From the NCBI GenBank assembly GCA_003557645.1, contig PWNV01000020.1, forward strand, positions 78,328 through 142,327: a DNA stretch of 64,000 bases. Reading direction: 5' to 3'. This document shows, in pieces, positions 1,200-53,107 of the stretch. Source of the stretch: Candidatus Nealsonbacteria bacterium (GTDB lineage Bacteria > Patescibacteriota > Minisyncoccia > Minisyncoccales > PWPS01). Both the position numbers and the translations under genes were made by a program. Under the pieces are notes generated by a model that saw nothing but the letters and a program-made list of their open reading frames with translations, was not told where the DNA came from and searched no databases. Within the stretch, counting starts at the first letter, position 1. Each line of letters starts with the position of its first letter.

Positions 1200-2204
1200 T
1201 TATTTATTTTCCTTTTCTATCCTCTCTTTTAATTTTTCTATTATTTTCTTCATTTTTTTCATTTTCAACTCTCTTCCTACAGTAAGACGACGAAACTTTT
1301 CTAACTCATCAACTTTATCCTGTAACTCTTTTGTTCTTTCTTGTATTTTGCTTTCTAAGTTTTCGTTCAGCTCTTTTAATTCTTTCGCTTTTGAGTCTAT
1401 TTTAACTTCAAGCACATCTTTTGCCTCTTCTAAATTTAATTGATAATATTTCAAGTCCTTAATCATCTCATTAAAGCTGTCAATCAATTCTCCTATTTCA
1501 GTATTTGGCTCCGTGTCAATGCTCGGTTCCAGCCCACCATCCCTGGCATCTTTAAAGGCTTCAATAACTTTTTTAAGAGGAACTATAATACTGATTCTTA
1601 AAATAAGAAATATTGTCAAACTAATCATTACTAAACACCCTGTTATAATTAAGAATCCATAAAACACAATTTCTCTGCACATTTCTTCAACGCTTTCCAA
1701 AGAGAAACCTATCCAAATAAACTGCCCACCACTACCTGGATAAATGATTGACCTTATCTTTTCACCATTAAAAATAACATCTGCTTCTATAACGCTGCCC
1801 GCTAAAAAAAGATTTAAAATGTTAGGATTTGTGATCTTTTTGCCACTCTCCCCTTTAATGCTGCTTTGATTGATCCCACCATCTTCTGTGATTACTCTTA
1901 TATATCGTAAGTCACTAAATCCCGCCATCTCTTCAACCATAGTTTCCTTTATATTCTTTTGATAGAGCGCGGATGAAGAATAAGTCGTTCTATCAATAAC
2001 CTCAGCCAATTGCACAATTTCTTGAATCTTTCCTTCAGTTAACTTATTCCTCTGGTAATTAGCAAGAACCGATCCAAAGAAAAGAACAATAACCGCAATG
2101 GCTATAATAAGAACAAATACTATGGTATAGAGAGAGTATCTTTTTTTCATACGTTGTCTCCTTTTAACTCTTCTCATTCTACCGCCACTAAATATTTTTT
2201 TCAA
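1200..2204 (-). CDS. membrane sensor-like protein with HAMP domain and C-terminal coiled coil, no recognisable output domain
   Basis: Layout is N-terminal TM helix, about 150-aa extracytoplasmic region, second TM, then a HAMP-like segment (PLKKVIEAFKDARDGG...EIGELIDSFNEMIKDL). A heptad-rich tail ends the protein (ELEKFRRLTVGRELKMKK). Confidence 0.6.
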   Translation of the reverse strand: MKKIFSGGRMRRVKRRQRMKKRYSLYTIVFVLIIAIAVIVLFFGSVLANYQRNKLTEGKIQEIVQLAEVIDRTTYSSSALYQKNIKETMVEEMAGFSDLRYIRVITEDGGINQSSIKGESGKKITNPNILNLFLAGSVIEADVIFNGEKIRSIIYPGSGGQFIWIGFSLESVEEMCREIVFYGFLIITGCLVMISLTIFLILRISIIVPLKKVIEAFKDARDGGLEPSIDTEPNTEIGELIDSFNEMIKDLKYYQLNLEEAKDVLEVKIDSKAKELKELNENLESKIQERTKELQDKVDELEKFRRLTVGRELKMKKMKKIIEKLKERIEKENK

Positions 2205-2303
2205 GCTTCTTAAAGCTTGTAAAGTCCTGTTCTGTAAAAAAAGAAACCAGCAATCAGCGTCAGTATTATAATGAGAAGTAAAATATTCTTTGCCTTCATT
2301 ATT

Positions 2304-2747
2304 TTACTTTCCAATAATTTGTAATTGAACTTTTCTGTGCCGCGCACTATCAAGCTCAACAAGCATAAGGCTTTGCCACTGCCCAAGCTGAAGCCTTCCC
2401 TTTATAACGCACAATGTGATCGTTGATAATAAATTAATAGCGTTACAGTGCGAGTGCCCGTTTTTACACTCGTTGTCACACACATTAACAGTTCTTTTTG
2501 CAAGATTGTCATGCTTATAATCTTTCTCCTGCGGAGCACTCTCTTCTAAGTGATTTCTGATGTCTTCTAAAAGTAAGGGCTCGTTTTCGTTGAGGATAAG
2601 AGCAGCAGAGGTGTGTAAAATTTGCACATTCAAAAATCCTTCTTCTATTTTTGAAGAATCTAAGAACTCTTTCGCTTTACTTGTAAAGTCAATAAAATGA
2701 AAGATTTTTTCTGTTTTAAATTCTAATAATTTGTTACTTGTTTTCAT
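2304..2747 (-). CDS. YjbQ/UPF0047 family protein
   Basis: 147 aa. Family-typical HTSAALILNENEP and LGQWQSLMLVELD segments. Confidence 0.8.
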   Translation of the reverse strand: MKTSNKLLEFKTEKIFHFIDFTSKAKEFLDSSKIEEGFLNVQILHTSAALILNENEPLLLEDIRNHLEESAPQEKDYKHDNLAKRTVNVCDNECKNGHSHCNAINLLSTITLCVIKGRLQLGQWQSLMLVELDSARHRKVQLQIIGK

Positions 2748-2809
2748 AAATTTCTAAAACAAGAGCTCGAGAAAGTTCTCGAGCCCTTTATTAAAAAACA
2801 AAATTAAGA

Positions 2810-3193
2810 CTAATTTGTTTCTTGTACCTCTTCAAACATTCTCTCAATATCATCTGCCGTCAATGCCTTAAGTTCTTCTAGCGATAACTCCATAATTTTT
2901 TCATCTAAAAGAAGAAGGCTCTCAAGTAAATCCGGGTCCTCTTCTGCAGCCATCTGCATCTCTTCGGGAATAACCTCTTCGAAGGCTTCTTGTAATCTTA
3001 TGAGCTCTTCCTCCGTTAGTTGCATAATTGGAAGATCTTCTTGCTCCGGATCAATCACAATTTCTGCCTCTTGTTCTGGAGTAACAGGATCCTCTCCTTT
3101 TGGAGCAACAGGTTCCTCTTCTTTTGGAATAATCAAAAACACAATAGCAATTGCCAAAGCGCAGACTACTCCAATAAGTATATTTTTTGTCAT
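2810..3193 (-). CDS. hypothetical membrane-anchored acidic protein
   Basis: N-terminal TM helix followed by a Glu/Asp/Pro-rich low-complexity region. No recognised family. Confidence 0.4.
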   Translation of the reverse strand: MTKNILIGVVCALAIAIVFLIIPKEEEPVAPKGEDPVTPEQEAEIVIDPEQEDLPIMQLTEEELIRLQEAFEEVIPEEMQMAAEEDPDLLESLLLLDEKIMELSLEELKALTADDIERMFEEVQETN

Positions 3194-3271
3194 GTTTTGT
3201 TTTTTTTATTTTATCCGACCTTTAAGGCCTAACGTATCAAAAATAAAATAGTATGTAAACCCCCCACTCTA

Positions 3272-3874
3272 TCATTGTCTTACGTTTCTTCTTTTTTTAA
3301 TGAAAATTAAAGGAAAAACTATATCACTTAAACAACAAGGAACTATTACAGCAACAAAAACAATAAAAAAGGATATTAGAGCGTGAGCTAGGATAAAATC
3401 CGAACTAAAAGCTAAGAGATAAAACAGACTGGCAAACACAGAAAGAAGAACATGAGCAAAGTGAGGTGTCTTCGTTATCTTTAGAGCTATCCCAGCAATA
3501 CTTCCCAAAGAAGCAAAAAACAGAGTTAGAAAAGTTTCCTCAACTAAAGGAAGGTGAAAATGCAAATGAACGTCCAGGAAAATTCCACCTAAATATGGAA
3601 AAACTACATCACTTAAACTCCCAATAATTATTGCACCAGAAATACCTACAAAGAAAGCGTTAATAAAGGACGGTTTATACTTATAATAAAGTGCTCCTGT
3701 TGCCATGGCCGAAACAATAATATGCAAAAAGTGAAATATATGAAAAACATCTTCTCCAATCTCTCGTCTTAAAATATAATAAATGAAAAAAACAATCAAA
3801 ATCGCAACGAGCACCGCTAAGGCAGTAAAGGGAGTGTGCTCTTTTAGTTCTTCTATTACTTCCTTTGTTCTCAT
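3272..3874 (-). CDS. integral membrane protein, His-rich TM segments (possible metal-ion transporter)
   Basis: 200 aa with about 6 hydrophobic helices and conserved-looking His clusters (HIFHFLHII, HLHFHLP). The transporter function is a guess. Confidence 0.45.
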   Translation of the reverse strand: MRTKEVIEELKEHTPFTALAVLVAILIVFFIYYILRREIGEDVFHIFHFLHIIVSAMATGALYYKYKPSFINAFFVGISGAIIIGSLSDVVFPYLGGIFLDVHLHFHLPLVEETFLTLFFASLGSIAGIALKITKTPHFAHVLLSVFASLFYLLAFSSDFILAHALISFFIVFVAVIVPCCLSDIVFPLIFIKKRRNVRQ

Positions 3875-4389
3875 TGATAATGTAAATTAATAAACCTGGC
3901 AACAGCAAAAATAATTGCTTTTTCGTAACCTTCTGTTCTTGAAATTAAATTATTGGTTAAAATCCCCACCGCGCCTTGCTTCTGTTTTGTGTCCTTTTCG
4001 CCAATAACTTCATCCATCACAGGACCAAGTTCTTCTCCTTTTCTAATCTTACAAGCGATCTTCTCTGGTAACGGTAACATTCCACCGTTACCAATTCCAA
4101 CCTCCCCACTCTTGTCTACCGCAACAACCCAACCTGTAAGAAACATGCCAAAATGAGAATCATAAACACATGCCTCTATCCCAATACCGATGTCGGCATC
4201 AACTTCCTTTAGAGATGACTGTGCTCTGTTCTTTGCTCCCTCGATACCCTCTTCGTTTGATGTCGGTTGCTCTTTCACACCCGAAGAAGCAATCGTTCCA
4301 ATAACTTCGGCTTCCGGCCAAATCTTTGCAACAACGTTTCTCACAGCTGCCACTTTTACAGGACTTTTTGAACCTACGCTTATTTTCAT
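3871..4389 (-). CDS. inosine/xanthosine triphosphatase, YjjX/DUF84 family
   Basis: 172 aa. N-terminal VGSKSPVKVAAV and C-terminal GAVGILTNNLISRTE resemble the YjjX NTPase family. 4-nt overlap with the downstream ORF. Confidence 0.7.
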   Translation of the reverse strand: MKISVGSKSPVKVAAVRNVVAKIWPEAEVIGTIASSGVKEQPTSNEEGIEGAKNRAQSSLKEVDADIGIGIEACVYDSHFGMFLTGWVVAVDKSGEVGIGNGGMLPLPEKIACKIRKGEELGPVMDEVIGEKDTKQKQGAVGILTNNLISRTEGYEKAIIFAVARFINLHYQ

Positions 4390-8380: not shown

Positions 8381-9322
8381 TCAAGCTATTTCTTTGCAAA
8401 CATCTATAATATTGTTAAAAGTTTGATCGCTGGGAACTGCTTCTTTGAAATATATCCCCTCCTTCTCTTTTTCCTCAATGACTTCATTAATAATTTTTAA
8501 AAGAGATTCACACTGATCAATAAATTCTTTGTTTTCTTCTCCTATGATACTTTTGTAAGTTTCTAATTGAATTTTAATTTCTTTTAAAAAGACGCCTTGA
8601 AGAGGATCTTTGTTCAGTTTTTTTATCAGATCATTTTTCCACTCTTCCACAAACCCACCTTTATCTTCTTCTAAAGACTTTAGCTCTGCAAAAGTATCAA
8701 AAAGATTATCTACATTGTTTTTGTCTGCCCCCACTACCACCGGAATTAAATTTTTAAGGCTTCCTTGATAATATTCTCCATTAGCATCTTTTATTTGAGA
8801 ATTAAAATACTTAACCTCTTGCATATCCTTTTTCTTTCTTATTTTCTCTATATTTCTCCTTATTTTCTCTTCAATAACTTTAACATTAGAAGATGTGGAG
8901 GCATCCACTGCAATGGCCATTCTTTCTGGTCTTTCTTTGTCAAACTCAATAACCATATCCACTCCATTTATCACGTCATCATATTCAGATGTTCTGGATG
9001 TCTTTACGTCTTTTCCAAGCCATTCTCCTTGATGTATTCGATCACCTAGAACTATTTCAAAACACCTCCCTCTTTTTTTGTTTTCTTCCATAATCCTTTT
9101 TTCTGTTTCTCCTAATCCAGAGTTACTTTTTTCGATTCCTTTTTTAGTTAACCTTAATTTGTTAAGGTCTTTTCCAATTGGGTTTTCTTTCCCATGATAG
9201 ATATGCATGAAGTGTCGGGGATCAGGAGCTTCAAGAGTTTCGCCATACTCTAAAATAATATCATAAACTTTTCCCTTATTTTCTTTTTCTTCAACGCAAT
9301 AATTTTCAAAAATATTTCTCAT
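8381..9322 (-). CDS. hypothetical protein
   Basis: 313-aa charged soluble protein. No family recognised. Confidence 0.4.
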   Translation of the reverse strand: MRNIFENYCVEEKENKGKVYDIILEYGETLEAPDPRHFMHIYHGKENPIGKDLNKLRLTKKGIEKSNSGLGETEKRIMEENKKRGRCFEIVLGDRIHQGEWLGKDVKTSRTSEYDDVINGVDMVIEFDKERPERMAIAVDASTSSNVKVIEEKIRRNIEKIRKKKDMQEVKYFNSQIKDANGEYYQGSLKNLIPVVVGADKNNVDNLFDTFAELKSLEEDKGGFVEEWKNDLIKKLNKDPLQGVFLKEIKIQLETYKSIIGEENKEFIDQCESLLKIINEVIEEKEKEGIYFKEAVPSDQTFNNIIDVCKEIA

Positions 9323-9429
9323 ACTCTTTAATCTTTATAAAATAATATCTTATTTACCCTCTTTCCGCAAACAAAATTTTAAAAAAATGATAGATATAAA
9401 AATAGGGAGCATAACAACATGCTCCCTTT

Positions 9430-10260
9430 TTAAAAAAGGTAAAAGGATATTCCAATAATTGCTAACCATATGTTTGTAATATTACTTACAAGTATATTAT
9501 TGCCAGCAACTTTTACTCGATTATCTCTTAAAAGAACCAAACAACTCTTAAACTCTGGCCAACTCGAGAGTGTGGCCAGCACCAAAAAACCAATCAAGTT
9601 CTTTGGAACGCCAGAAACTTCCCTAGCAAAATCCACCGCTAAATCAAGAAAAGATCCCGCTAAAAAAAGTAGTATGACTGCTGGAACTATGGCCCAACTT
9701 GCAACATCAGAAGATCTTTCTCCTCTCCTCTCTTCTTTAGGTCTTAAAAAGAAAAAGAGTGACGTCGTTAAAAAAGCTATTACCATCCATCCCAAATAAA
9801 AGTTTTCGGGCACGATGTAAAAAATCAAGGAAAGAGCAGCGGTAAAAGCGATGCAAAGCAAGCCATAAGTAAGCTTTGTTTGTAATAATTTAATAGCTCC
9901 CCCACTTAGTAACATCGCTAGCACAAGCATTACTGGATTAATGACGCTCGAACCTAACGGAGTGCTGGTGCCAAAAAGTGCATCGCCTGTCATAATCCCT
10001 ACCACGAGCACTATCAACTCAGGCCCATTAGTTAAAAAGCCAAGAATAGCTCCAAGTCCTCGAACATTACGAAGAATTTCAATGATGATCTCTATCGCCA
10101 CTCCTATTACGCTCATTATTAGAATAACACATAAAGAAGCTAAGACAGTAACTCCAGGACTCCCTCCACTCTTTAGAGAAAAGGAAAGGAAAAAAAGCAA
10201 AACTCCTGCCCAGATATAAACATCTAAAACATCAATCCATTTCCTTGCACCATAAAACAC
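9430..10260 (-). CDS. Ca2+/cation antiporter (CaCA)-like membrane protein
   Basis: Two internal repeats resemble CaCA alpha-repeats: TNGPELIVLVVG...GSSVINPVML and LSSWPEFKSCLV...VSNITNIWL. Confidence 0.55.
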   Translation of the reverse strand: MFYGARKWIDVLDVYIWAGVLLFFLSFSLKSGGSPGVTVLASLCVILIMSVIGVAIEIIIEILRNVRGLGAILGFLTNGPELIVLVVGIMTGDALFGTSTPLGSSVINPVMLVLAMLLSGGAIKLLQTKLTYGLLCIAFTAALSLIFYIVPENFYLGWMVIAFLTTSLFFFLRPKEERRGERSSDVASWAIVPAVILLFLAGSFLDLAVDFAREVSGVPKNLIGFLVLATLSSWPEFKSCLVLLRDNRVKVAGNNILVSNITNIWLAIIGISFYLF

Positions 10261-21975: not shown

Positions 21976-22479
21976 TTATTTTTCCTTAAATTCTTTGATC
22001 AAAATATTTAATTCATCTAGGGAAAGCGTTGAAAGAACCGAGTTTGCTGCCCAATTTTCTTGTGTTATGTCTTCTCCAAACCAACTAGGTGCATCAAATT
22101 TACTTCTTTTTTCTTCACTTGGAAACTCAACTTCCACCATTGCAAAACCATTAAGCCTATCTCGAAAAACATCCACTTCTGCGGTTAAGTCTCCTAAAGG
22201 ATAAAAATATCTTTTCTTTGATATTTTTTTAAGACAAACTTTCCACAAAAGATTAAACTCTTCTTCTTTTATGGTAATGCTTGTTTCGTTGAAACGACTA
22301 CAATCACATTCATCTATCTTGACCTTTTTTGTGAGGGTAAAAATTTGATTGTTTTCGCTTCTTATTCTAAGCGGACTCGGAAGGCCTGAAAAATAACCTT
22401 GCTTTATTTCAATCCTTTTTTGTTCTTCTAGATCCTTTGGAAGGTTTTTGATTAAAAAAGTTAGTTCATTTTCAAACAT
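21976..22479 (-). CDS. CYTH domain protein (triphosphate tunnel metalloenzyme)
   Basis: ELTFLIKNLP...IKQGYF...LRIR...LTKK...VDVF...GFAMVEVEF pattern. Confidence 0.75.
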   Translation of the reverse strand: MFENELTFLIKNLPKDLEEQKRIEIKQGYFSGLPSPLRIRSENNQIFTLTKKVKIDECDCSRFNETSITIKEEEFNLLWKVCLKKISKKRYFYPLGDLTAEVDVFRDRLNGFAMVEVEFPSEEKRSKFDAPSWFGEDITQENWAANSVLSTLSLDELNILIKEFKEK

Positions 22480-26675: not shown

Positions 26676-27401
26676 TCAAAAATATTTACTAAACCGCTTC
26701 TTAATTTCAACGAACTCCTGTTTTTTGAAATTAAACCTATGCCCTGGTCTATCATTTAAACTTTTTAAAAGTCTACAAAATTTTTCGTGATCAAGGGTCT
26801 CTATATCAAGATCTTCACACTCTTTTCTTATCCTCTCGTTAGCTTTTTCAATATTTTTAGACTCAGTTACAACTTCCGCTTCAAAATAATATCCCCAATC
26901 AGGAACCTCTACCAAGGAAAAATCGACTTCCTTGTAGCGATAAAGATATGTTTTTGTTGCCTGAAGAACACCGTGATAGTGTCCCAGTATCTTTAAAAAC
27001 TCTATCATCTCATCAATCTTTTCTTTTTCAATTGGGAAAAGAAACTCTTTCCGCGCATCATTCCCGCTCCACCTTCCATGCTTTAAAACCAACTCCCCTT
27101 TTTTATTGGTTATTCTAACCTTTAAATCTACTGGATGTTCGTATACCTCTTTACTTTGATCATCCTCTCGTTGTGAGTATATAACAGAAAACCTATCAAT
27201 TATTCCTAGGAAATCAGCTTCTTTATCAAAAAAAACCTTAAGTCTTTTAAACTCATCTTTTTTTAGTGCTCCCCTGTGCTCAACTTCTATTTTTGTCATA
27301 TTTCTCTTTATCATCATACCAGACCTCGAAGAAAAGATAAATAAAAAAGGAAACCTTTTCAGAGCTCCCTTTTTGTGTTTACCGACTCGTTTAGATGACA
27401 A
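26676..27401 (-). CDS. CYTH-like domain protein
   Basis: EVEHRG...DLKVRIT...LVLKHG...RKEFLFPI...VDFSLVEVPDWGYYFEAEV beta-strand pattern. The true start is probably an internal Met at 27317 or 27299. Confidence 0.55.
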   Translation of the reverse strand: MSSKRVGKHKKGALKRFPFLFIFSSRSGMMIKRNMTKIEVEHRGALKKDEFKRLKVFFDKEADFLGIIDRFSVIYSQREDDQSKEVYEHPVDLKVRITNKKGELVLKHGRWSGNDARKEFLFPIEKEKIDEMIEFLKILGHYHGVLQATKTYLYRYKEVDFSLVEVPDWGYYFEAEVVTESKNIEKANERIRKECEDLDIETLDHEKFCRLLKSLNDRPGHRFNFKKQEFVEIKKRFSKYF

Positions 27402-31001: not shown

Positions 31002-31030
31002 AAAGCCCCTGGTTGAAAGCAGGGGTTTTG
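31002..31030 (-). terminator. terminator-like hairpin downstream of QueC-like A
   Basis: Stem cccctg/cagggg with an 8-nt loop, followed by a U-rich tract on the minus strand. Confidence 0.5.
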
Positions 31031-31048: not shown

Positions 31049-31882
31049 CTAAGCATCATATTTTGTTCTGTCTTCTATTCCCGCCTTTTTAAATGCTTCT
31101 ATTCTGTTAACGCAAGCGGGGTAGCACTTCCCACAATGTTTTTCTTGATCTTTATAACAACTCCTTGTTTTTTCAATAGGAAGATTGTGTTTATCAGCCC
31201 ATCTCAAATAAACATCTTTCCCATAAAAATTATTATACTCCCTCTCTATAGGAAGGCATATCACTTGCCAAGAATAATCGCCCATAATCTGACAAATTAA
31301 TAGATTTAAAATCCTCATGGATGTAAGAGTTGAGTGTCTCGGTGGATCTTCTTTCATGCAAGAAATAAAAACTGTCTTTGGGAAAACTTTTTTTGATTGA
31401 AGAGAGTAAGCATATTCTGCTGCTGTTAATATTATTGCTGGATTTCTAGCAGGATAAGCTATTCTCGTTCTTGACTCTATTCCGTCCCCTAAATTTTTTA
31501 CACTCCTTAACATGTCCTTGTATTCAGAGGCAGGAGTCGGTACTTGAATTTCAATAGTTTTATTAAACAGTTCAGGATATTTCTTCGAAAAGTAATCATC
31601 AAAATAATTTACAGCTTCTCTTTCATACTTTAAATTGCTCTGATCTCTATTTATAAAAGCAGGATAAACACTAAGCTTAAAATCCTCTAAGAGAATAGCA
31701 ATATTGGTTGTAGAATCCATTCCTCCAGAGTGAACTGCAACAACCGGAGACCCGGGTTTGGGAATTTTTGCAACATTTAATCTTCTCCTCTTTATTATCC
31801 CGTCAATATCCTTTAGAACACTCGGATCCTCTTGTCTTTTCTTCTCTAAACCAAAAGTATTAGTGTTTATTATCTTCGTCAT
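31049..31882 (-). CDS. QueC-like PP-loop ATPase, paralog A
   Basis: PP-loop HSGGMDSTT, YPARNP segment, and a C-terminal Zn-type cluster SCYKDQEKHCGKCYPAC. A ~40-aa N-terminal extension precedes the PP-loop. Overlaps the upstream TS-like gene by 23 nt. Confidence 0.75.
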   Translation of the reverse strand: MTKIINTNTFGLEKKRQEDPSVLKDIDGIIKRRRLNVAKIPKPGSPVVAVHSGGMDSTTNIAILLEDFKLSVYPAFINRDQSNLKYEREAVNYFDDYFSKKYPELFNKTIEIQVPTPASEYKDMLRSVKNLGDGIESRTRIAYPARNPAIILTAAEYAYSLQSKKVFPKTVFISCMKEDPPRHSTLTSMRILNLLICQIMGDYSWQVICLPIEREYNNFYGKDVYLRWADKHNLPIEKTRSCYKDQEKHCGKCYPACVNRIEAFKKAGIEDRTKYDA

Positions 31883-32594
31883 ATTTTTTAATTAATTCTT
31901 TAGCATCTTCTATGCACTCTCCATATATGTGCACATCTGTTATAAAACCATCCAATGACTTTGTATTAATTGGAACATTTAATTTTTTGCTAAGATCTTC
32001 TGCTATCTGATTACAAAGTATTGATATCGCCAACATATTTCCATTTCCTTTCTGAAAACCATCTAAGCTTCTTGCATACCAAACGCAATTCATATCCCAC
32101 CCTTCATTGTTTTTAATGAGCCTAAATTGAACGTTGCAAAGACATGGCAAATAATCATCGTAGTGATCTGCCATCACCAGCTCATAATCCTCCCAGTTTA
32201 TGAAGCTCATCACTGCCTTCTTGCTTTCAGGTATAGTGCTCAGCCTGTCAATAATATACTCATACATTCTTCCCTCTTTAATTCTGGAATAGTAACTTTT
32301 AGGTCCCGCAGTAAAGCTTGGAACTACATCAAAATCATACATCTCTACTCCCCCTCCAACAGTTAAATAAACTATGGCATCCAAGTTGTCTTTATTTCCG
32401 TATTCTTCCAGAACAGGATCGGGCATAACCGGTTTTTCTATCTTAATTCTTAAATTTTGAAGAGCTACTCTATCTCTTTTTTCATCAGGTGAATTTTCTC
32501 CGAAATCAATTATTGAGCGAATTAAATCAACCCAAGCTTTGCCTACGGTTTCGTTGTGAATATGGACACCAAACGGCTCTATATTTTTGTACAT
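31860..32594 (-). CDS. divergent thymidylate-synthase-fold enzyme (archaeal-type TS-like)
   Basis: LPCLCNVQF (catalytic Cys region, compare PPCH..FQF), WYARSLD (compare YQRSxD), DVHIYG (compare H.Y). Lacks several canonical ThyA motifs. Confidence 0.65.
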   Translation of the reverse strand: MYKNIEPFGVHIHNETVGKAWVDLIRSIIDFGENSPDEKRDRVALQNLRIKIEKPVMPDPVLEEYGNKDNLDAIVYLTVGGGVEMYDFDVVPSFTAGPKSYYSRIKEGRMYEYIIDRLSTIPESKKAVMSFINWEDYELVMADHYDDYLPCLCNVQFRLIKNNEGWDMNCVWYARSLDGFQKGNGNMLAISILCNQIAEDLSKKLNVPINTKSLDGFITDVHIYGECIEDAKELIKKYDEDNKH

Positions 32595-32792
32595 ATTTTT
32601 TTTAAAAAAAACAATATTTTTTATTGCTTTTTTAATTAATAATTATGTTTAACATTTATACTTGATTGGCTCTGATGAAATAATATATTTACATTATATA
32701 ATAAAATATATTTTTGTCAATAATAAGCCTTAAAACTGTGTCCCCCGCCTCATTTACCTTTACAAAACAAGAAAATATGTTATTGTAAAAAA

Positions 32793-33668
32793 ATGAATAA
32801 TTTAATCAACACAAAGACTGGTCATTTAAATAGAGAAAGAAGGACTGAAGATGGATATCTTATTGAAAAATTTAATGAAATTTTGAAAGAAAAGAGAGGT
32901 TACGTTGTTAAAATACCAAAAGAAAGCTCCGCTGTAACAATTCCTGTATCTGGAGGAATTGACAGCATATGTCAGCTGTTTATTTTGCTTAATGATCTTA
33001 AGCTAAATGTTTATCCATGCTTCATAGACAGAGGACAGTCAAACATTAAAGCAGAAAGTGCGTCAGTAGATTATTTCAATAAATACTTTTCAAAAAGATT
33101 TCCAAATCATTTTCACGAGATAAAAAAAATAAAAGTAGAAACCCCTGCAAAAGAGTATAAAGAAGACTTAATAGCTACTAAAAAACTAAAAGACGATATA
33201 TTGCTAAGAACCGATATTAGCTATCCTGTAAGAAATCCAATTATCTTTCTAACCGCAATGGAGTACGCTTATTCTCTTCAGTCAAAAGGTGTTTATATAG
33301 ATACCGTATTTCTTTCTCTTTGCAAAGAAGATAATTTATACCACTCTTCCCTAACTTCACTGAGGTCCTTAAATATTTTGATTTGTCATATTACAAATAA
33401 CTGGAATTGGCAAATAATATCTTTACCAATTGAAGAAGAGTTTCAAAATTGCTACGAAAAAGAGGTTTACATGAAGCATTGTCTTGAAAATGGGCTTCCA
33501 TTAGAATTTACTAGAACGTGCACAAACAAAGGGAAAAATCATTGTGGCCAGTGTGCTTGTTGCTGGGACAGGAGAAATGGATTCAAGAACGCAAAAGCAA
33601 AAGACTTAACTGTTTATGATAACCCATTAAACGATAATCTTTCTTATGCCGAAAGAAGGCTTTTATAA
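32793..33668 (+). CDS. QueC-like PP-loop ATPase, paralog B
   Basis: VSGGIDS, YPVRNP and TCTNKGKNHCGQCACC. Roughly 45% identical to paralog A by eye, including the N-terminal extension (INT.T..L...R.ED). Confidence 0.75.
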   Translation: MNNLINTKTGHLNRERRTEDGYLIEKFNEILKEKRGYVVKIPKESSAVTIPVSGGIDSICQLFILLNDLKLNVYPCFIDRGQSNIKAESASVDYFNKYFSKRFPNHFHEIKKIKVETPAKEYKEDLIATKKLKDDILLRTDISYPVRNPIIFLTAMEYAYSLQSKGVYIDTVFLSLCKEDNLYHSSLTSLRSLNILICHITNNWNWQIISLPIEEEFQNCYEKEVYMKHCLENGLPLEFTRTCTNKGKNHCGQCACCWDRRNGFKNAKAKDLTVYDNPLNDNLSYAERRLL

Positions 33669-33671
33669 AAT

Positions 33672-34199
33672 ATGAAAAAAGAAATAGAAGTTAAATTTCA
33701 ATTAAAAAACAAAGATAAGATTCTTGAAAAGCTCTCTGCTTTGGGAGGAAAAGCAAAAAAACCATATGACCAAATAACATATGGATTTTTTTCAAAAGAC
33801 TCTGTTGAGAGAGGTATTTTTCCTAGAATAAGGAAAGAATTTGGGAAAAGTGTTTTAACCGTGAAAGTAAGGCCACAAAAAGAATCTTCCTTTTTTGAAA
33901 GAAAAGAATATTCAATAACAATTGATGACGAAAAGGAAGGTATAGAAATACTAAAATCTCTGGGATTTGATCGTATCAGAGAGTTTTCAAAGAAAAGACA
34001 AGAGTGGGAATTTCCTGATGTTGAGGTGTGTGTTGATGATCTGTACTTTGGCACTTTTTTAGAAATTGAAGGAGAAAAGAAAGACATTGAATCAATGATT
34101 AAAAAACTAGGACTTGAAAATAATGAAAGAATAACAAAGGCGTACTTAGCCATTGAAGATGACTATAAAAGTATGTTGAAGAAAGATAATAAGAGTTAG
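33672..34199 (+). CDS. CYTH domain protein (CyaB/class IV adenylate cyclase-like)
   Basis: EIEVKFQL...PRIR...LTVKV...ERKEYSI...VCVDDLYFGTFLEIEGE pattern. Starts 3 nt after the stop of QueC-like B. Confidence 0.75.
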   Translation: MKKEIEVKFQLKNKDKILEKLSALGGKAKKPYDQITYGFFSKDSVERGIFPRIRKEFGKSVLTVKVRPQKESSFFERKEYSITIDDEKEGIEILKSLGFDRIREFSKKRQEWEFPDVEVCVDDLYFGTFLEIEGEKKDIESMIKKLGLENNERITKAYLAIEDDYKSMLKKDNKS

Positions 34200-34254
34200 T
34201 TTTGTTATTTTTCTCCGACATATCAACTCTGTCGGAGGAGGGAAACTGATCTTT

Positions 34255-34872
34255 ATGAGTAAAATATTTGTTTTATACGGGATTAATGGAGTTGGTAAAG
34301 ATGCTATTGCTGCTGCTCTACAAAGAGAGAATTCAGAAATTGTAATTGTTACCGTGTCAAGGCTAGTTATGTATCATCTAGGAATTATAAGAGACTTTTC
34401 CTATAATTTAAGTATCAATGAAAGCGCATATCGTGAACTTGAAAAAACAAGTTCCGAAAGAAAGGAAGAAGTCTCAAATACTCTCTGTTTTGAGACCATA
34501 GCAAGTCTTTCTGAAAACGGTAAAATTGTTTTGTGCTTGAGTCACCTAGCAATATCAAAAAGATACGGCAAAAATAACTGGACATGCAAGCCATCATCCC
34601 CTTCAAAGTGGATTAATAGTGCAAATGGATTAATTCATGTCACCGCTGATCCAGAAGATGTTTTAATTTGGAGAAAAAACGATAAGAGAGAAAGGGTAAA
34701 CTGCATCAAAGAAATCCAAGAGCAACAGATAACAACGACCAATGAGTGGGAGAAAATCATCAACAACACCCAAGTTCCTTACATCACCGTTTTAAACAAG
34801 AATCATCAAAAAAGAAAAGCTGTACGTGCTATCGAAAGATTTATTTTCCAAAACAGCAGAAAAGAGGATTAA
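34255..34872 (+). CDS. P-loop protein resembling archaeal-type adenylate kinase
   Basis: GINGVGKD P-loop. Collinear with my recollection of archaeal AdkA (…HL.I....G…W…, ADPEDVLIWRKND..RER, IQEQQ). SD ggagg lies upstream. Confidence 0.5.
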   Translation: MSKIFVLYGINGVGKDAIAAALQRENSEIVIVTVSRLVMYHLGIIRDFSYNLSINESAYRELEKTSSERKEEVSNTLCFETIASLSENGKIVLCLSHLAISKRYGKNNWTCKPSSPSKWINSANGLIHVTADPEDVLIWRKNDKRERVNCIKEIQEQQITTTNEWEKIINNTQVPYITVLNKNHQKRKAVRAIERFIFQNSRKED

Positions 34873-34919
34873 CCATCCTCTCTTTTTTTTAAAGAATACA
34901 TTTTTTGGGATTACTCCAT

Positions 34920-45927: not shown

Positions 45928-46002
45928 AACAAAAACCCGAGAAGTCCTCGGGGTTGTTATTAGAAAAAAAATAGAAAGAGCTGCCGGGATAGGACTCGAA
46001 CC
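45928..46002. repeat. direct repeat copy B (includes the genuine 3' end of tRNA-Gln and its terminator)
   Basis: Partner of 44727..44806. Confidence 0.75.
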
Positions 46003-46051
46003 TATACTACGAGTGCCAGAAACTCGTGTCCTACCATTAGACGACCCGGCA
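45982..46051 (-). tRNA. tRNA-Gln (anticodon CUG)
   Basis: Manual cloverleaf. Acceptor TGCCGGG/CCCGGCA with the U1-A72 pair typical of tRNA-Gln, anticodon loop TTCTGGC, T-loop TTCGAGT. No encoded CCA. Confidence 0.9.
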
Positions 46052-48759: not shown

Positions 48760-48777
48760 AATTATAATAAATTAATG

Positions 48778-48849
48778 AGCCAGCGACCGGAATTGAACCG
48801 GTGACCTGCTCTTTACGAGAGAGCTGCTCTGCCTCTGAGCTACGCTGGC
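48778..48849 (-). tRNA. tRNA-Thr (anticodon CGU)
   Basis: Manual cloverleaf. Acceptor GCCAGCG/CGCTGGC, anticodon loop CTCGTAA, T-loop TTCAATT. Confidence 0.9.
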
Positions 48850-48864
48850 AAACTGAATTTTCTG

Positions 48865-48935
48865 AGCGAGTGAGGGGAATCGAACCCCCGTCTCAACCTT
48901 GGGAAGGTTGCATTCTGCCACTGAACCACACTCGC
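48865..48935 (-). tRNA. tRNA-Gly (anticodon CCC)
   Basis: Manual cloverleaf. Acceptor GCGAGTG/CACTCGC, anticodon loop TTCCCAA, T-loop TTCGATT. Confidence 0.9.
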
Positions 48936-52758: not shown

Positions 52759-52775
52759 ATATTAATATAAAAAAA

Positions 52776-53107
52776 GCTCAAGTAGGACGTAAGCTGAATT
52801 CTGTTATTCCTACAAAAAGTAGAAACGATAATCATTTATCTTGGCTTCGAATTACTTCGAAGCTCCAGCGGGCTACCAAAATTTGCCCTTGCACTCGGAT
52901 AGGGATTTAGCCGTTTCACTCCTAATGTCTCCATTAGGACTATTCCCGAAGGAATCGTCTTTCCTTACGAAAAAACGCGTCTCTGCTCGCACCCCTCGCT
53001 TTACAGCGTGCGGGAATTACCCGCTATCTTTTTACTTAAAAAGTGAGTGTTCAGACTTTCCTCCCTTCTTCATTAAAAAGAAGAGCGATTACCTCACCTA
53101 CTTGAGC
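52776..53107 (-). ncRNA. rnpB: RNase P RNA (bacterial type A-like)
   Basis: On the minus strand: P1 GCUCAAGUAGG pairs with CCUACUUGAGC. Conserved regions are CR-I GGGAGGAAAGUCUGAAC, GUGCAAGGGCAAA, CR-IV AGAUAAAUGAUUAUC and CR-V ACAGAAUUCAGCUUAC. P4 complementarity is AAGUCUGAA/UUCAGCUU. Confidence 0.85.

Follow-up and report, generated by a model that had tools for sequence, protein, structure and literature searches.

A 64,000-nucleotide stretch of the genome of a Candidatus Nealsonbacteria bacterium (contig PWNV01000020.1, positions 78,328 to 142,327; hereafter the window) carries a divergent five-gene cluster at 31049-34872, which we found to be one copy of a gene module that is rare, tightly conserved and apparently undescribed in the literature searched. 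The core of the module is a thymidylate synthase-like (TS-like) gene followed by a gene for a PP-loop ATPase of the QueC family (QueC-like), accompanied in the window by a second QueC-like gene, a CYTH gene and a gene for a P-loop protein. We give about even odds (probability near 0.5) to the reading that the module encodes a mononucleotide-level pathway to a non-canonical, thymidylate-like pyrimidine deoxynucleotide, and that it circulates between the ultra-small cells of candidate phyla radiation (CPR) bacteria and DPANN archaea and their phages. As judged from sequence, what would be new is a QueC-family enzyme as a core component of nucleotide-level pyrimidine modification, in lineages not reported to have such a system; searches of the full-text literature turned up no account of these genes in combination. 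The initial annotation of the cluster had suggested nucleotide modification or signalling, not queuosine synthesis. Modification is favoured by the recurrent synteny, the accompanying nucleotide enzymes and the presence of the module on phage-like contigs, and the case against queuosine held, while signalling lost support for reasons given below with the CYTH protein.

Recurrence of the module

Neighbourhoods were collected by exact look-up and by scans of genomes, metagenomes and viral contigs, and were annotated with hidden Markov models built from the module proteins. A word-indexed search for the QueC-like protein returned only 38 clusters among 5.8 billion proteins, and an exhaustive profile search returned 230 representatives at E ≤ 1e-30 among 1.84 billion; the TS-like protein retrieved at least 316 clusters, labelled "thymidylate synthase" or hypothetical. 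Within a set of 89 non-redundant loci, 66 of the 68 cases that could be assessed had the TS-like gene as the immediate upstream neighbour of the QueC-like gene. The two reading frames typically overlapped by 17-23 nt, which implies that the two proteins are co-translated. Because the synteny recurs in 89 non-redundant loci the arrangement is not due to chance, and the neighbourhood first noticed in the window recurs widely.

The composition of the module was assessed in 38 well-flanked loci with at least 2.5 kb on either side. The TS-like gene was present in 36 of these, and 33 contained at least one hydrolase gene of the CYTH (28 loci), Ham1 (5) or NUDIX (8) type, the three being interchangeable at the same position in the module. 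A nucleoside monophosphate (NMP) kinase was found in 19 of the 38. The kinase varies across loci and falls into several adenylate-kinase-like groups, and several loci have instead a true homologue of thymidylate kinase (PF02223, 3e-26), encoded between the TS-like gene and the QueC-like gene. Nucleoside diphosphate kinase (NDK; PF00334, about 1e-35) occurs in two clusters (L014 and L029). A 481 aa protein very close to the module QueC-like family (P0160) is a QueC-like::Ham1 fusion, with an E-value of 1.5e-123 to the family profile and of 1.6e-20 to Ham1p_like.

Richer loci carry extra Ham1 copies together with a shorter QueC-like paralog. In Candidatus Collierbacteria GW2011_GWC2_44_18 (locus L032, 3711-10854) the module forms an eleven-gene nucleotide supercluster that contains Ham1, a short QueC-like protein, a pyridoxal phosphate (PLP)-dependent aminotransferase-fold enzyme, a short TS-like protein with a diagnostic Asp (Asp-type, see below), a kinase, a dCTP-deaminase-like protein (PF22769, 3e-19), a QueC-like protein, Ham1, a nucleoside deoxyribosyltransferase-like protein and PfkB, with a methyltransferase gene upstream. 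The pairing of nucleoside deoxyribosyltransferase and PfkB in this locus recalls "cluster 4" of a 2026 survey of PF06508.

The QueC-like PP-loop ATPases

The two QueC-like genes of the window lie at 31049-31882 on the minus strand (paralog A, 277 aa) and at 32793-33668 on the plus strand (paralog B, 291 aa). Both proteins score above the gathering threshold of Pfam QueC (PF06508; 5e-14 for A and 6e-10 for B) and they are 49% identical to each other, which bears out their recognition in the initial annotation as QueC-like paralogs with a PP-loop and four Cys. The PP-loop (S52-G-G-x-D56-S57) does not vary among 32 members of the family, the two window paralogs among them, and neither do, across the family, the four C-terminal Cys (C242, C250, C253 and C257). 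Both A and B keep all of the family-invariant residues and are probably active. The Cys cluster reads Cx7CxxCxxxC in A and Cx7CxxCx(1-2)C in B, where the last two Cys are adjacent, and is a spacing variant of the canonical C(x)8CxxCxxC zinc-binding motif. The (V/Y)PxRN motif is also retained.

Single-sequence searches of the Protein Data Bank (PDB) with the module proteins gave nearly no matches and the TS-like family profile none, so that structure prediction was needed. The AlphaFold2 model of paralog A (predicted local distance difference test, pLDDT, 94.5) matched QueC (2pg3) and Cap9 (9nto_B) first in Foldseek, followed by YcfA, GMP synthase, TtuA, LarE, NcsA and TilS. The family profile found Cap9 (9e-10, best) and QueC (3e-3) in the PDB, and hhalign of the family against E. 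coli QueC gave 96% probability; identity to QueC is 18-25%. With canonical QueC, taken here as TIGR00364 or cluster 1 of PF06508 in PMC13329287, the QueC-like proteins share the fold, SGGxDS, (V/Y)PxRN and the zinc-type Cys cluster, and presumably the adenylation chemistry and the ammonia nucleophile.

They differ from canonical QueC in score and in substrate pocket. Against the TIGR00364 equivalog A reaches 35.7 bits and B 18.4 bits, below the cut-off of 150.3. The N-terminal extension claimed in the initial annotation is real and about 45 aa long: the Pfam QueC match begins only at residue 52, and the extension is modelled confidently (pLDDT 82-96, with a helix at 20-34). It holds Glu18, which is invariant across the family, as are the family-specific Tyr121-Lys122, Glu156-Tyr157, His183 and the additional Cys197. 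The canonical YxQxHxxE site reads R79-G-Q81-x5-E87, with an invariant Arg in place of Tyr and the His absent, and YPDC is missing, the corresponding region reading (E/D)DPxxHS in a part of the hhalign alignment that is of low confidence. Of three pocket motifs diagnostic of canonical QueC, the family therefore lacks two, and both the Tyr of YxQxHxxE and YPDC are essential in the E. coli enzyme (PMC13329287). Since the essential Tyr is Arg, YPDC is gone and new invariant residues have appeared, the 7-deazaguanine pocket is, on the alignments, remodelled in this family, with an invariant Arg, a Tyr-Lys pair and a His taking the place of the pocket motifs; two Arg and a Lys would suit a phosphorylated substrate.

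These features bear directly on the most conventional explanation of the cluster, that two QueC paralogs carry out orthodox or near-orthodox synthesis of queuosine and its precursor 7-cyano-7-deazaguanine (preQ0), or deazaguanine salvage, beside three unrelated genes. The above-threshold Pfam matches, the PP-loop and the Cys cluster are what it would expect, and relatives carry the label 7-cyano-7-deazaguanine synthase in public annotation. The equivalog scores far under the cut-off and the loss of the Y(xQ) and YPDC pocket motifs speak against it, and the strict, mostly overlapping linkage to the TS-like gene would be left unexplained. The absence of adjacent queD, queE, folE, queF and tgt reported in the initial annotation was upheld: none is among the 20 neighbouring genes scanned, which cover roughly 10 kb to either side of the cluster, and none is a recurrent neighbour in the 89 loci. 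A Q_salvage gene lies 5 kb from the module in one locus (L011), which counts for this explanation, and yet on balance we regard it as highly improbable.

QueC-family enzymes have also been recruited outside queuosine synthesis. Cap9 of type IV CBASS (cyclic oligonucleotide-based antiphage signalling system) and QatC of QatABCD conjugate a protein N-terminus to 7-deazaguanine, and Cap9 resembles the QueC-like model with a template modelling (TM) score of 0.79 over the length of Cap9. Cap9 is the closest solved relative by sequence profile, but the genetic context differs. The partners of the module are nucleotide-metabolism enzymes, and genes for a CD-NTase, the tRNA-guanine transglycosylase (TGT)-like Cap10, QatA, QatB and QatD were absent near the module in the window and the annotated loci. 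Against the QatC model NF041925 (cut-off 280) the paralogs scored 29.9 (A) and 19.2 bits (B), and only the C-terminal Cys region was matched. The 2026 survey of PF06508 lists QueC, QatC, Cap9, LarE, a PfkB-linked cluster, WbpG-like proteins, GMP synthase and small archaeal clusters, and does not mention thymidylate-synthase, CYTH or kinase neighbours.

A large sister branch of QueC-like proteins of about 410-465 aa (P0198, P0199, P0210, P0251 and P0265) is fused to a C-terminal PqqD domain; these match the family profile at about 1e-55 and are without the Arg-Gly-Gln motif. PqqD is a peptide-recognition element of pathways to ribosomally synthesised and post-translationally modified peptides (RiPPs), and the branch is separate and probably peptide-modifying. 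One further QueC-like protein (P0214) is fused to a peptidase S24-like domain. The PqqD- and S24-fused proteins may be undescribed peptide-modifying PP-loop enzymes; a literature search found no paper joining QueC, PqqD and RiPPs.

The TS-like enzyme

The TS-like gene (31860-32594, minus strand) encodes 244 aa. Its product passes Pfam Thymidylat_synt (PF00303; 8e-11, score 42 against a gathering score of 24.3), and its catalytic-Cys, RS.D and D.H.Y motifs align to C146, R166/S167/D169 and D205/H207/Y209 of E. coli ThyA, as expected for the divergent TS-fold protein proposed in the initial annotation. Only residues 106-231 aligned with ThyA in hhalign, the length and landmark residues of the ThyA reference having been verified. 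The family profile matched nothing in the PDB at E ≤ 0.01. The AlphaFold2 model (pLDDT 93.8) was closest in Foldseek to the CMP hydroxymethylase MilA (TM 0.72) and the phage dCMP hydroxylase AfhB (TM 0.70/0.77), and ThyA structures were farther away (TM about 0.55-0.60). Like the TS-like protein, MilA and AfhB are short or divergent TS-fold enzymes, and they act on free pyrimidine monophosphates; sequence identity to them is 15-17%.

Across 194 sequences of the family the equivalents of ThyA C146, R166, S167 and D169 (C151, R175, S176 and D178) are invariant, and those of H207 and Y209 (H222 and Y224) are kept in 192, the other two being alignment gaps. The equivalent of N177 (N186) is Asn in 188 and Asp in 6, that of L143 is Tyr in 193 of 194, and R126/R127 correspond to Lys-Lys. 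The folate contacts of ThyA are not retained: L172/G173/F176 are replaced by Gln/Lys/Gly, and the C-terminal segment of ThyA is missing, the TS-like protein ending about 20 residues past the D.H.Y motif. The change of hydrophobic folate contacts to Gln-Lys is suggestive but not decisive, as MilA also differs there.

In characterised enzymes of this superfamily, the residue at position 177 (Asn or Asp) decides between dUMP and dCMP, that at position 143 (hydrophobic or acidic) between a methyl and a hydroxymethyl product, and D169N marks the 5-hydroxy-dCMP synthases (PMC13326640). By these residue rules the TS-like family would be uracil-specific. Its Asn177, Tyr143 and Asp169 equivalents fit none of the methyl-, hydroxymethyl- or hydroxy-forming classes, and differ from MilA and AfhB, which have Asp at N177 and either Asp/Glu at L143 or Asn at D169. 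The enzyme is thus predicted to act at C5 of a uracil mononucleotide, probably dUMP, and the combination of uracil-specific residues with no match to a known class points to a C5 reaction on this nucleotide. An Asp-type sub-branch exists at the N177 position (P0112, P0121, P0131, P0154 and P0158, and the gene at 6129-6743 of L032), where Asp would mean cytosine specificity by the same rules. L032 is the only one of the 89 loci, all retrieved through the QueC-like gene, to contain an Asp-type protein, and a scan of viral contigs for Asp-type neighbourhoods found nothing.

A different account of the same protein would make the module a non-canonical route to dTTP, with the TS-like and QueC-like proteins forming a two-component, possibly folate-independent thymidylate synthase, the hydrolase serving as dUTPase and the kinases completing the path from dUMP through dTMP and dTDP to dTTP; it would supply thymidine to AT-rich, biosynthetically poor CPR and DPANN cells and to phages. 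The uracil-specific residues would suit it, the accessory genes (dCTP-deaminase-like, NTP pyrophosphatase, thymidylate kinase and NDK) are those of a dTTP pathway exactly, thymidylate synthases are often phage-borne, and the module has a chromosomal, non-island setting in the window and in L003. The short archaeal thymidylate synthase model TIGR03283 is moreover the best curated sequence match of the TS-like protein (1e-12 over the full length), but the 47.9 bits reached are far under the cut-off of 174.55, just as the ThyA model NF002495 gives 32.9 against 327. The water-excluding Leu143 has become Tyr and the folate contacts are lost, no known thymidylate synthesis requires a PP-loop ATPase, and a module found in 26 of 185,579 species representatives and as 230 representatives among 1.84 billion, patchily over phyla, is not a general CPR solution. 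We consider a dTTP route a serious alternative, though an unlikely one.

The CYTH protein and the NMP kinase

The last two genes of the plus arm are consistent with the names first given to them. The CYTH gene (33672-34199, plus strand) encodes a triphosphate tunnel protein of 175 aa that matches PF01928 (3e-14, 53.7 against a gathering score of 23.2), and, as its proposed CyaB-like identity implies, it passes the class IV adenylate cyclase model TIGR00318 (61.4 bits, cut-off 57.95). It is the sole one of the five proteins to pass a curated family cut-off, and EIEVK at residues 4-8 fits the ExExK motif. We predict it to be a nucleoside-triphosphate or triphosphate hydrolase. Hydrolysis of NTPs, not cyclisation, is preferred because Ham1 and NUDIX enzymes replace CYTH elsewhere and because the QueC-like::Ham1 fusion exists; a role as signalling cyclase was judged unlikely on the same grounds, and with it the signalling half of the original proposal. 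Two further CYTH-like open reading frames (ORFs) lie outside the cluster, both on the minus strand: one at 21976-22479 with a Pfam CYTH match of 3.5e-5, and one at 26676-27401 with an IEVEHR start and a CYTH-like layout by eye and no Pfam or NCBIfam match. Three CYTH-type genes inside 13 kb of the window are unusual.

The P-loop protein (34255-34872, plus strand, 205 aa) has a GxxGxGK Walker A motif. Taken alone it gives weak matches to the archaeal adenylate kinase model PRK04040 (8e-4) and to AAA_18 (3e-4), and scores 19 against the cut-off of 155 for AdkA (NF003122). A profile of 13 module kinases matched the archaeal adenylate kinases 1ki9, 6pjw and 3h86 at 5e-16 to 5e-15, 1ki9 at 5e-16 over the full length, and on this basis the fifth gene encodes an NMP kinase of the archaeal adenylate-kinase fold, in agreement with the initial annotation.

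Proposed pathway

Taken together, these assignments would fit a four-step pathway. In the first step the NTP hydrolase (CYTH here, Ham1 or NUDIX elsewhere) would convert a pyrimidine dNTP to the monophosphate, fed in one locus by the dCTP-deaminase-like enzyme; alternatively or in addition, it might remove an unwanted triphosphate. The Cys of the TS-like enzyme would then attack C6 of dUMP and install a C5 substituent. In the third step the QueC-like ATPase, probably in complex with its co-translated partner, the TS-like enzyme, would adenylate an oxygen of the product, which could belong to a carbonyl of the ring or to a carbonyl or carboxyl carried by the new C5 substituent, and ammonia or another small nucleophile would displace AMP. 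The outcome could be a thymidylate-like intermediate aminated or thiolated at C4 or C2, or the amide of a carboxyl-bearing C5 substituent. Finally, an adenylate-kinase-like or thymidylate-kinase-like enzyme followed by NDK would phosphorylate the product back to the triphosphate, for use in DNA synthesis. What the analysis shows directly is the order and co-occurrence of the genes, the fusion protein, the conserved residues, the folds and the range of carrier taxa; the sequence of the steps, the choice of deoxynucleotides over ribonucleotides, the entry of the product into DNA and the reactions assigned to steps 2 and 3 are inferred.

The carboxylate that QueC amidates and then dehydrates sits on an sp2 carbon equivalent in position to pyrimidine C5. 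YcfA, also a PP-loop enzyme, adenylates the carbonyl of a free guanine nucleotide and accepts a small nucleophile (PMC12494993). It is from the chemistry of these two enzymes that ring chemistry or C5-carboxyl amidation is proposed for the QueC-like step, which would parallel the conversion of 7-carboxy-7-deazaguanine through its amide to preQ0 at C7 of deazaguanine. YcfA ranks third among the structural matches of the QueC-like protein (identity 11-13%), and in the YcfA-YcfC 6-thioguanine system (PMC12494993) a stand-alone PP-loop enzyme likewise adenylates a carbonyl so that a small nucleophile displaces AMP; the short QueC-like protein and PLP enzyme of L032 resemble the YcfA and YcfC pairing, a PLP partner being found in that one locus. 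YcfA-YcfC differs in its purine context and has no TS-like partner, whereas the context of the module is pyrimidine. We also considered that the QueC-like enzyme merely converts a U-derivative to a C-derivative; this is weakened by the co-occurrence in L032 of a QueC-like and an Asp-type TS-like protein, which slightly favours action on the C5 group, in a single locus.

Phage toolkits for pyrimidine modification include T4 gp42, gp56 and gp1 and the dUMP hydroxymethylase of SPO1. As in known modified-pyrimidine pathways, the module clusters a TS homologue, an NMP kinase and a dNTP hydrolase class, and does so also on phage-like contigs. A TS homologue with its cognate dNMP kinase is the standard route to modified phage pyrimidines, as in the toolkit of RB69 and DLP3 with its 5-hydroxy-dCMP synthase and dNMP kinase (PMC13326640). 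The module shares with such toolkits a TS-superfamily enzyme acting on a pyrimidine monophosphate (here by prediction), a dedicated NMP kinase, a dNTP pyrophosphatase, clustering of the genes and, in phage copies, adjacency to replication genes. It departs from them in its obligatory QueC-like PP-loop ATPase, which is in no described toolkit, in a hydrolase of the CYTH, Ham1 or NUDIX type instead of a dCTPase or dUTPase, in a kinase of archaeal adenylate-kinase type, in diagnostic TS residues outside all known product classes, and in the location of most copies in cellular CPR and DPANN genomes.

Several points weigh against a pathway to a non-canonical deoxynucleotide. The product and the chemistry of both core enzymes are predicted, and no source of a carboxylated pyrimidine is evident. 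Every QueC-family enzyme characterised so far is known to use the carboxylate of 7-carboxy-7-deazaguanine, and base replacement from the nucleotide pool in a cellular genome is not known to have a precedent. In the window and several other loci the module sits among ordinary chromosomal genes with no evident prophage. A TS, thymidylate kinase, NDK, dCTP-deaminase-like enzyme and dNTP pyrophosphatase also make up the ordinary dTTP pathway, the kinase is present in only half of the well-flanked loci, and the fusion of a sister clade to PqqD makes a peptide or protein substrate conceivable for the QueC-like enzyme.

A more specific and more speculative version of the proposal, which we hold to be doubtful, has the TS-fold enzyme functionalise C5 of dUMP, possibly without folate, the QueC-family ATPase amidate, aminate or thiolate the product, and the resulting base, a pyrimidine new to nature, occur genome-wide in cellular carriers. 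Genome-wide incorporation would make these the first cellular genomes with pool-level thymidine replacement or hypermodification. If a new DNA base were indeed made, the TS route to modified pyrimidines would gain PP-loop adenylation, a chemistry whose known targets are so far limited to purine-like 7-deazaguanines, tRNA and cofactors. Besides the synthesis of preQ0, the deazaguanylation of proteins and roles in cofactors or salvage, the QueC family would then have a fourth functional class in this module, which would also be the first nucleotide-modification system tied to the uncultured CPR and DPANN radiations and their phages. It could affect the behaviour of carrier DNA in restriction, sequencing and amplification, and could yield new enzymes for modified nucleotides. 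The labels "thymidylate synthase" and "7-cyano-7-deazaguanine synthase" probably mislead metabolic reconstructions of the carriers.

Carriers and phage-like contexts

The 26 species representatives that contain the module are Saccharibacteria, Uhr-, Staskawicz-, Brenner-, Shapiro-, Nealson-, Falkow- and Collierbacteria, WWE3 and Paceibacterota among bacteria, and one Woesearchaeote and one Nanoarchaeote among archaea; two short carrier contigs were binned as Gammaproteobacteria. Hosts are almost all Patescibacteria (CPR) and DPANN archaea. At least four module contigs look phage-like: L007, with an amidase endolysin, a Cas4-like exonuclease, RusA and many small same-strand ORFs; L038, an IMG/VR viral contig with an exonuclease and an endolysin-like peptidase; L042, with Rad52, Phage_rep_O, a DnaC-like loader and RecA; and L009, with a helicase and a PD-(D/E)XK nuclease. 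On these contigs the module lies inside the replication/recombination gene block. Large serine recombinases occur near it in a few cellular loci, and the chromosomal site differs among close relatives, the modules of L043 and L001 adjoining cysS and that of the window not. In 50,697 phage records the only tblastn matches were orthodox QueCs of phages, about 25% identical, and PHROGs held only generic QueC and thymidylate-synthase families.

A further reading is a system that makes a toxic or signalling nucleotide analogue for conflict with phages, hosts or competitors, and not for the producer's own DNA; the product might be an antimetabolite or chain terminator, comparable to 6-thioguanine nucleotides or the products of viperin, or a cyclic nucleotide made by the CYTH protein. 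The recruitment of the QueC family to defence as QatC and Cap9, Cap9 being the best sequence match in the PDB, gives this some weight, as do the precedent of YcfA, a PP-loop enzyme that turns a free nucleotide into an antimetabolite, the passing score of the CYTH protein with the class IV adenylate cyclase model, and the position of several loci among genes of a variable or conflict type, such as Fic, NYN, a diversity-generating retroelement, RhuM, Imm5 or a serine recombinase. PADLOC returned only weak generic QueC and QatC matches and none for the other three proteins, and no effector, sensor, cyclase or TGT-like partner recurs beside the module in the 89 loci. The Ham1 and NUDIX hydrolases that take the place of CYTH are incapable of cyclising, the kinase and NDK partners indicate a polymerase substrate, and the phage-like copies stand within replication/recombination blocks. 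A conflict function accordingly seems to us quite unlikely, and a deoxynucleotide destined for DNA remains our preferred reading of the module.

In one of the loci with such neighbours (L005) a diversity-generating-retroelement-like pair (bAvd and reverse transcriptase) lies at 1947-4054, a few kb upstream of the module, and a type I restriction-related fragment and RhuM lie a few kb downstream.

Locus layout and the chimeric copy in the window

The five ORFs and their coordinates and strands matched the initial annotation, as did the 23 nt shared by the TS-like and QueC-like A reading frames, the 3-nt gap between QueC-like B and CYTH and the 198-bp spacer between the two arms. The 23-nt overlap suggests translational coupling. 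The AT-rich spacer (32595-32792) would serve as the divergent promoter region: its minus strand contains a perfect TTGACA-16-TATAAT at 32720-32693, and promoter candidates on its plus strand are found at 32675-32702 (10/12) and 32759-32786. Each arm ends in a terminator-like hairpin. That of the minus arm (31006-31025, minus strand) has a 6-pair stem with 5 GC pairs, then a T-rich tail, and lies 24 nt 3′ of the QueC-like A stop codon; that of the plus arm (34863-34881, plus strand) has a 7-pair stem, then CTTTTTTTT, and overlaps the kinase stop codon.

The two arms have different nearest relatives. Compared with their counterparts on a soda-lake CPR contig (L043), the TS-like protein is 87% and QueC-like A 85% identical; the order there is TS, QueC-like, kinase, CYTH, and the kinase and CYTH of that contig are only 36-38% identical to the window's. 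QueC-like B is nearest to the TS-adjacent QueC-like proteins of L003 (59%) and L011 (57%), and the window CYTH is 69% identical to that of L003; in both of these loci the order is TS, QueC-like, CYTH, kinase. Judged by these identities, the window copy is a chimera of a TS and QueC-like pair of one lineage and a QueC-like, CYTH and kinase trio of another. The minus arm is without its own hydrolase and kinase, and the plus arm is without its own TS-like gene. A recent local duplication giving rise to A and B was rejected because the arms differ in their nearest relatives; instead, two module lineages have been joined in one genome.

The same divergent arrangement with the same 198-bp spacer is present at 1-2484 of L091, an independent metagenome contig from soda-lake sediment (SL_3KL_010_SEDDRAFT_10059769), which suggests that the window organism or a very close relative inhabits soda-lake sediment. 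In a Saccharibacteria locus (L001) a truncated second QueC-like gene of 164 aa (8951-9445) separates the full-length one from CYTH; it shares about 70% identity with the phage-type and Paceibacterota-type proteins, lacks the PP-loop half and is likely a decaying second acquisition. The L091 arrangement and the truncated gene fit repeated acquisition and decay of the module.

Genomic surroundings

The window has a G+C content of 32-39%, and its minus strand carries almost all genes, as is typical in appearance of a Patescibacteria (CPR) genome. The flanking genes have ordinary cellular functions, including YibE/F, DUF1295, DUF2177, D-Ala-D-Ala ligase, Pif1 helicase, methyltransferase, GGDEF, HD and sigma factor genes; no que, tgt, folE, integrase or phage genes were found among the 20 scanned. 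A class A bacterial RNase P RNA (52775-53104, minus strand, 137.5 bits) and three tRNA genes (Gln-CTG, Thr-CGT and Gly-CCC; 45980-46051 and 48777-48935) identify the window as bacterial chromosome.

Some other genes occur near the module in part of the 89 loci. ThiF-family E1-like genes lie a few kb from it in about five (L009, 2427-3748; L035, 11946-13022; and three others), accompanied in L009 by a JAB-like gene; they could belong to a sulfur relay or a ubiquitin-like system, or could be coincidental. A 7TM-type sensor histidine kinase (HisKA_7TM, HisKA, HATPase_c) is encoded 2-5 kb downstream in 16 loci (for example L085, 7413-9017), sometimes with a response regulator, and this recurrence may reflect Paceibacterota lineage synteny or regulation of the module. 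In L001 (1-1810) a DnaB helicase gene is interrupted by an intein with a LAGLIDADG domain.

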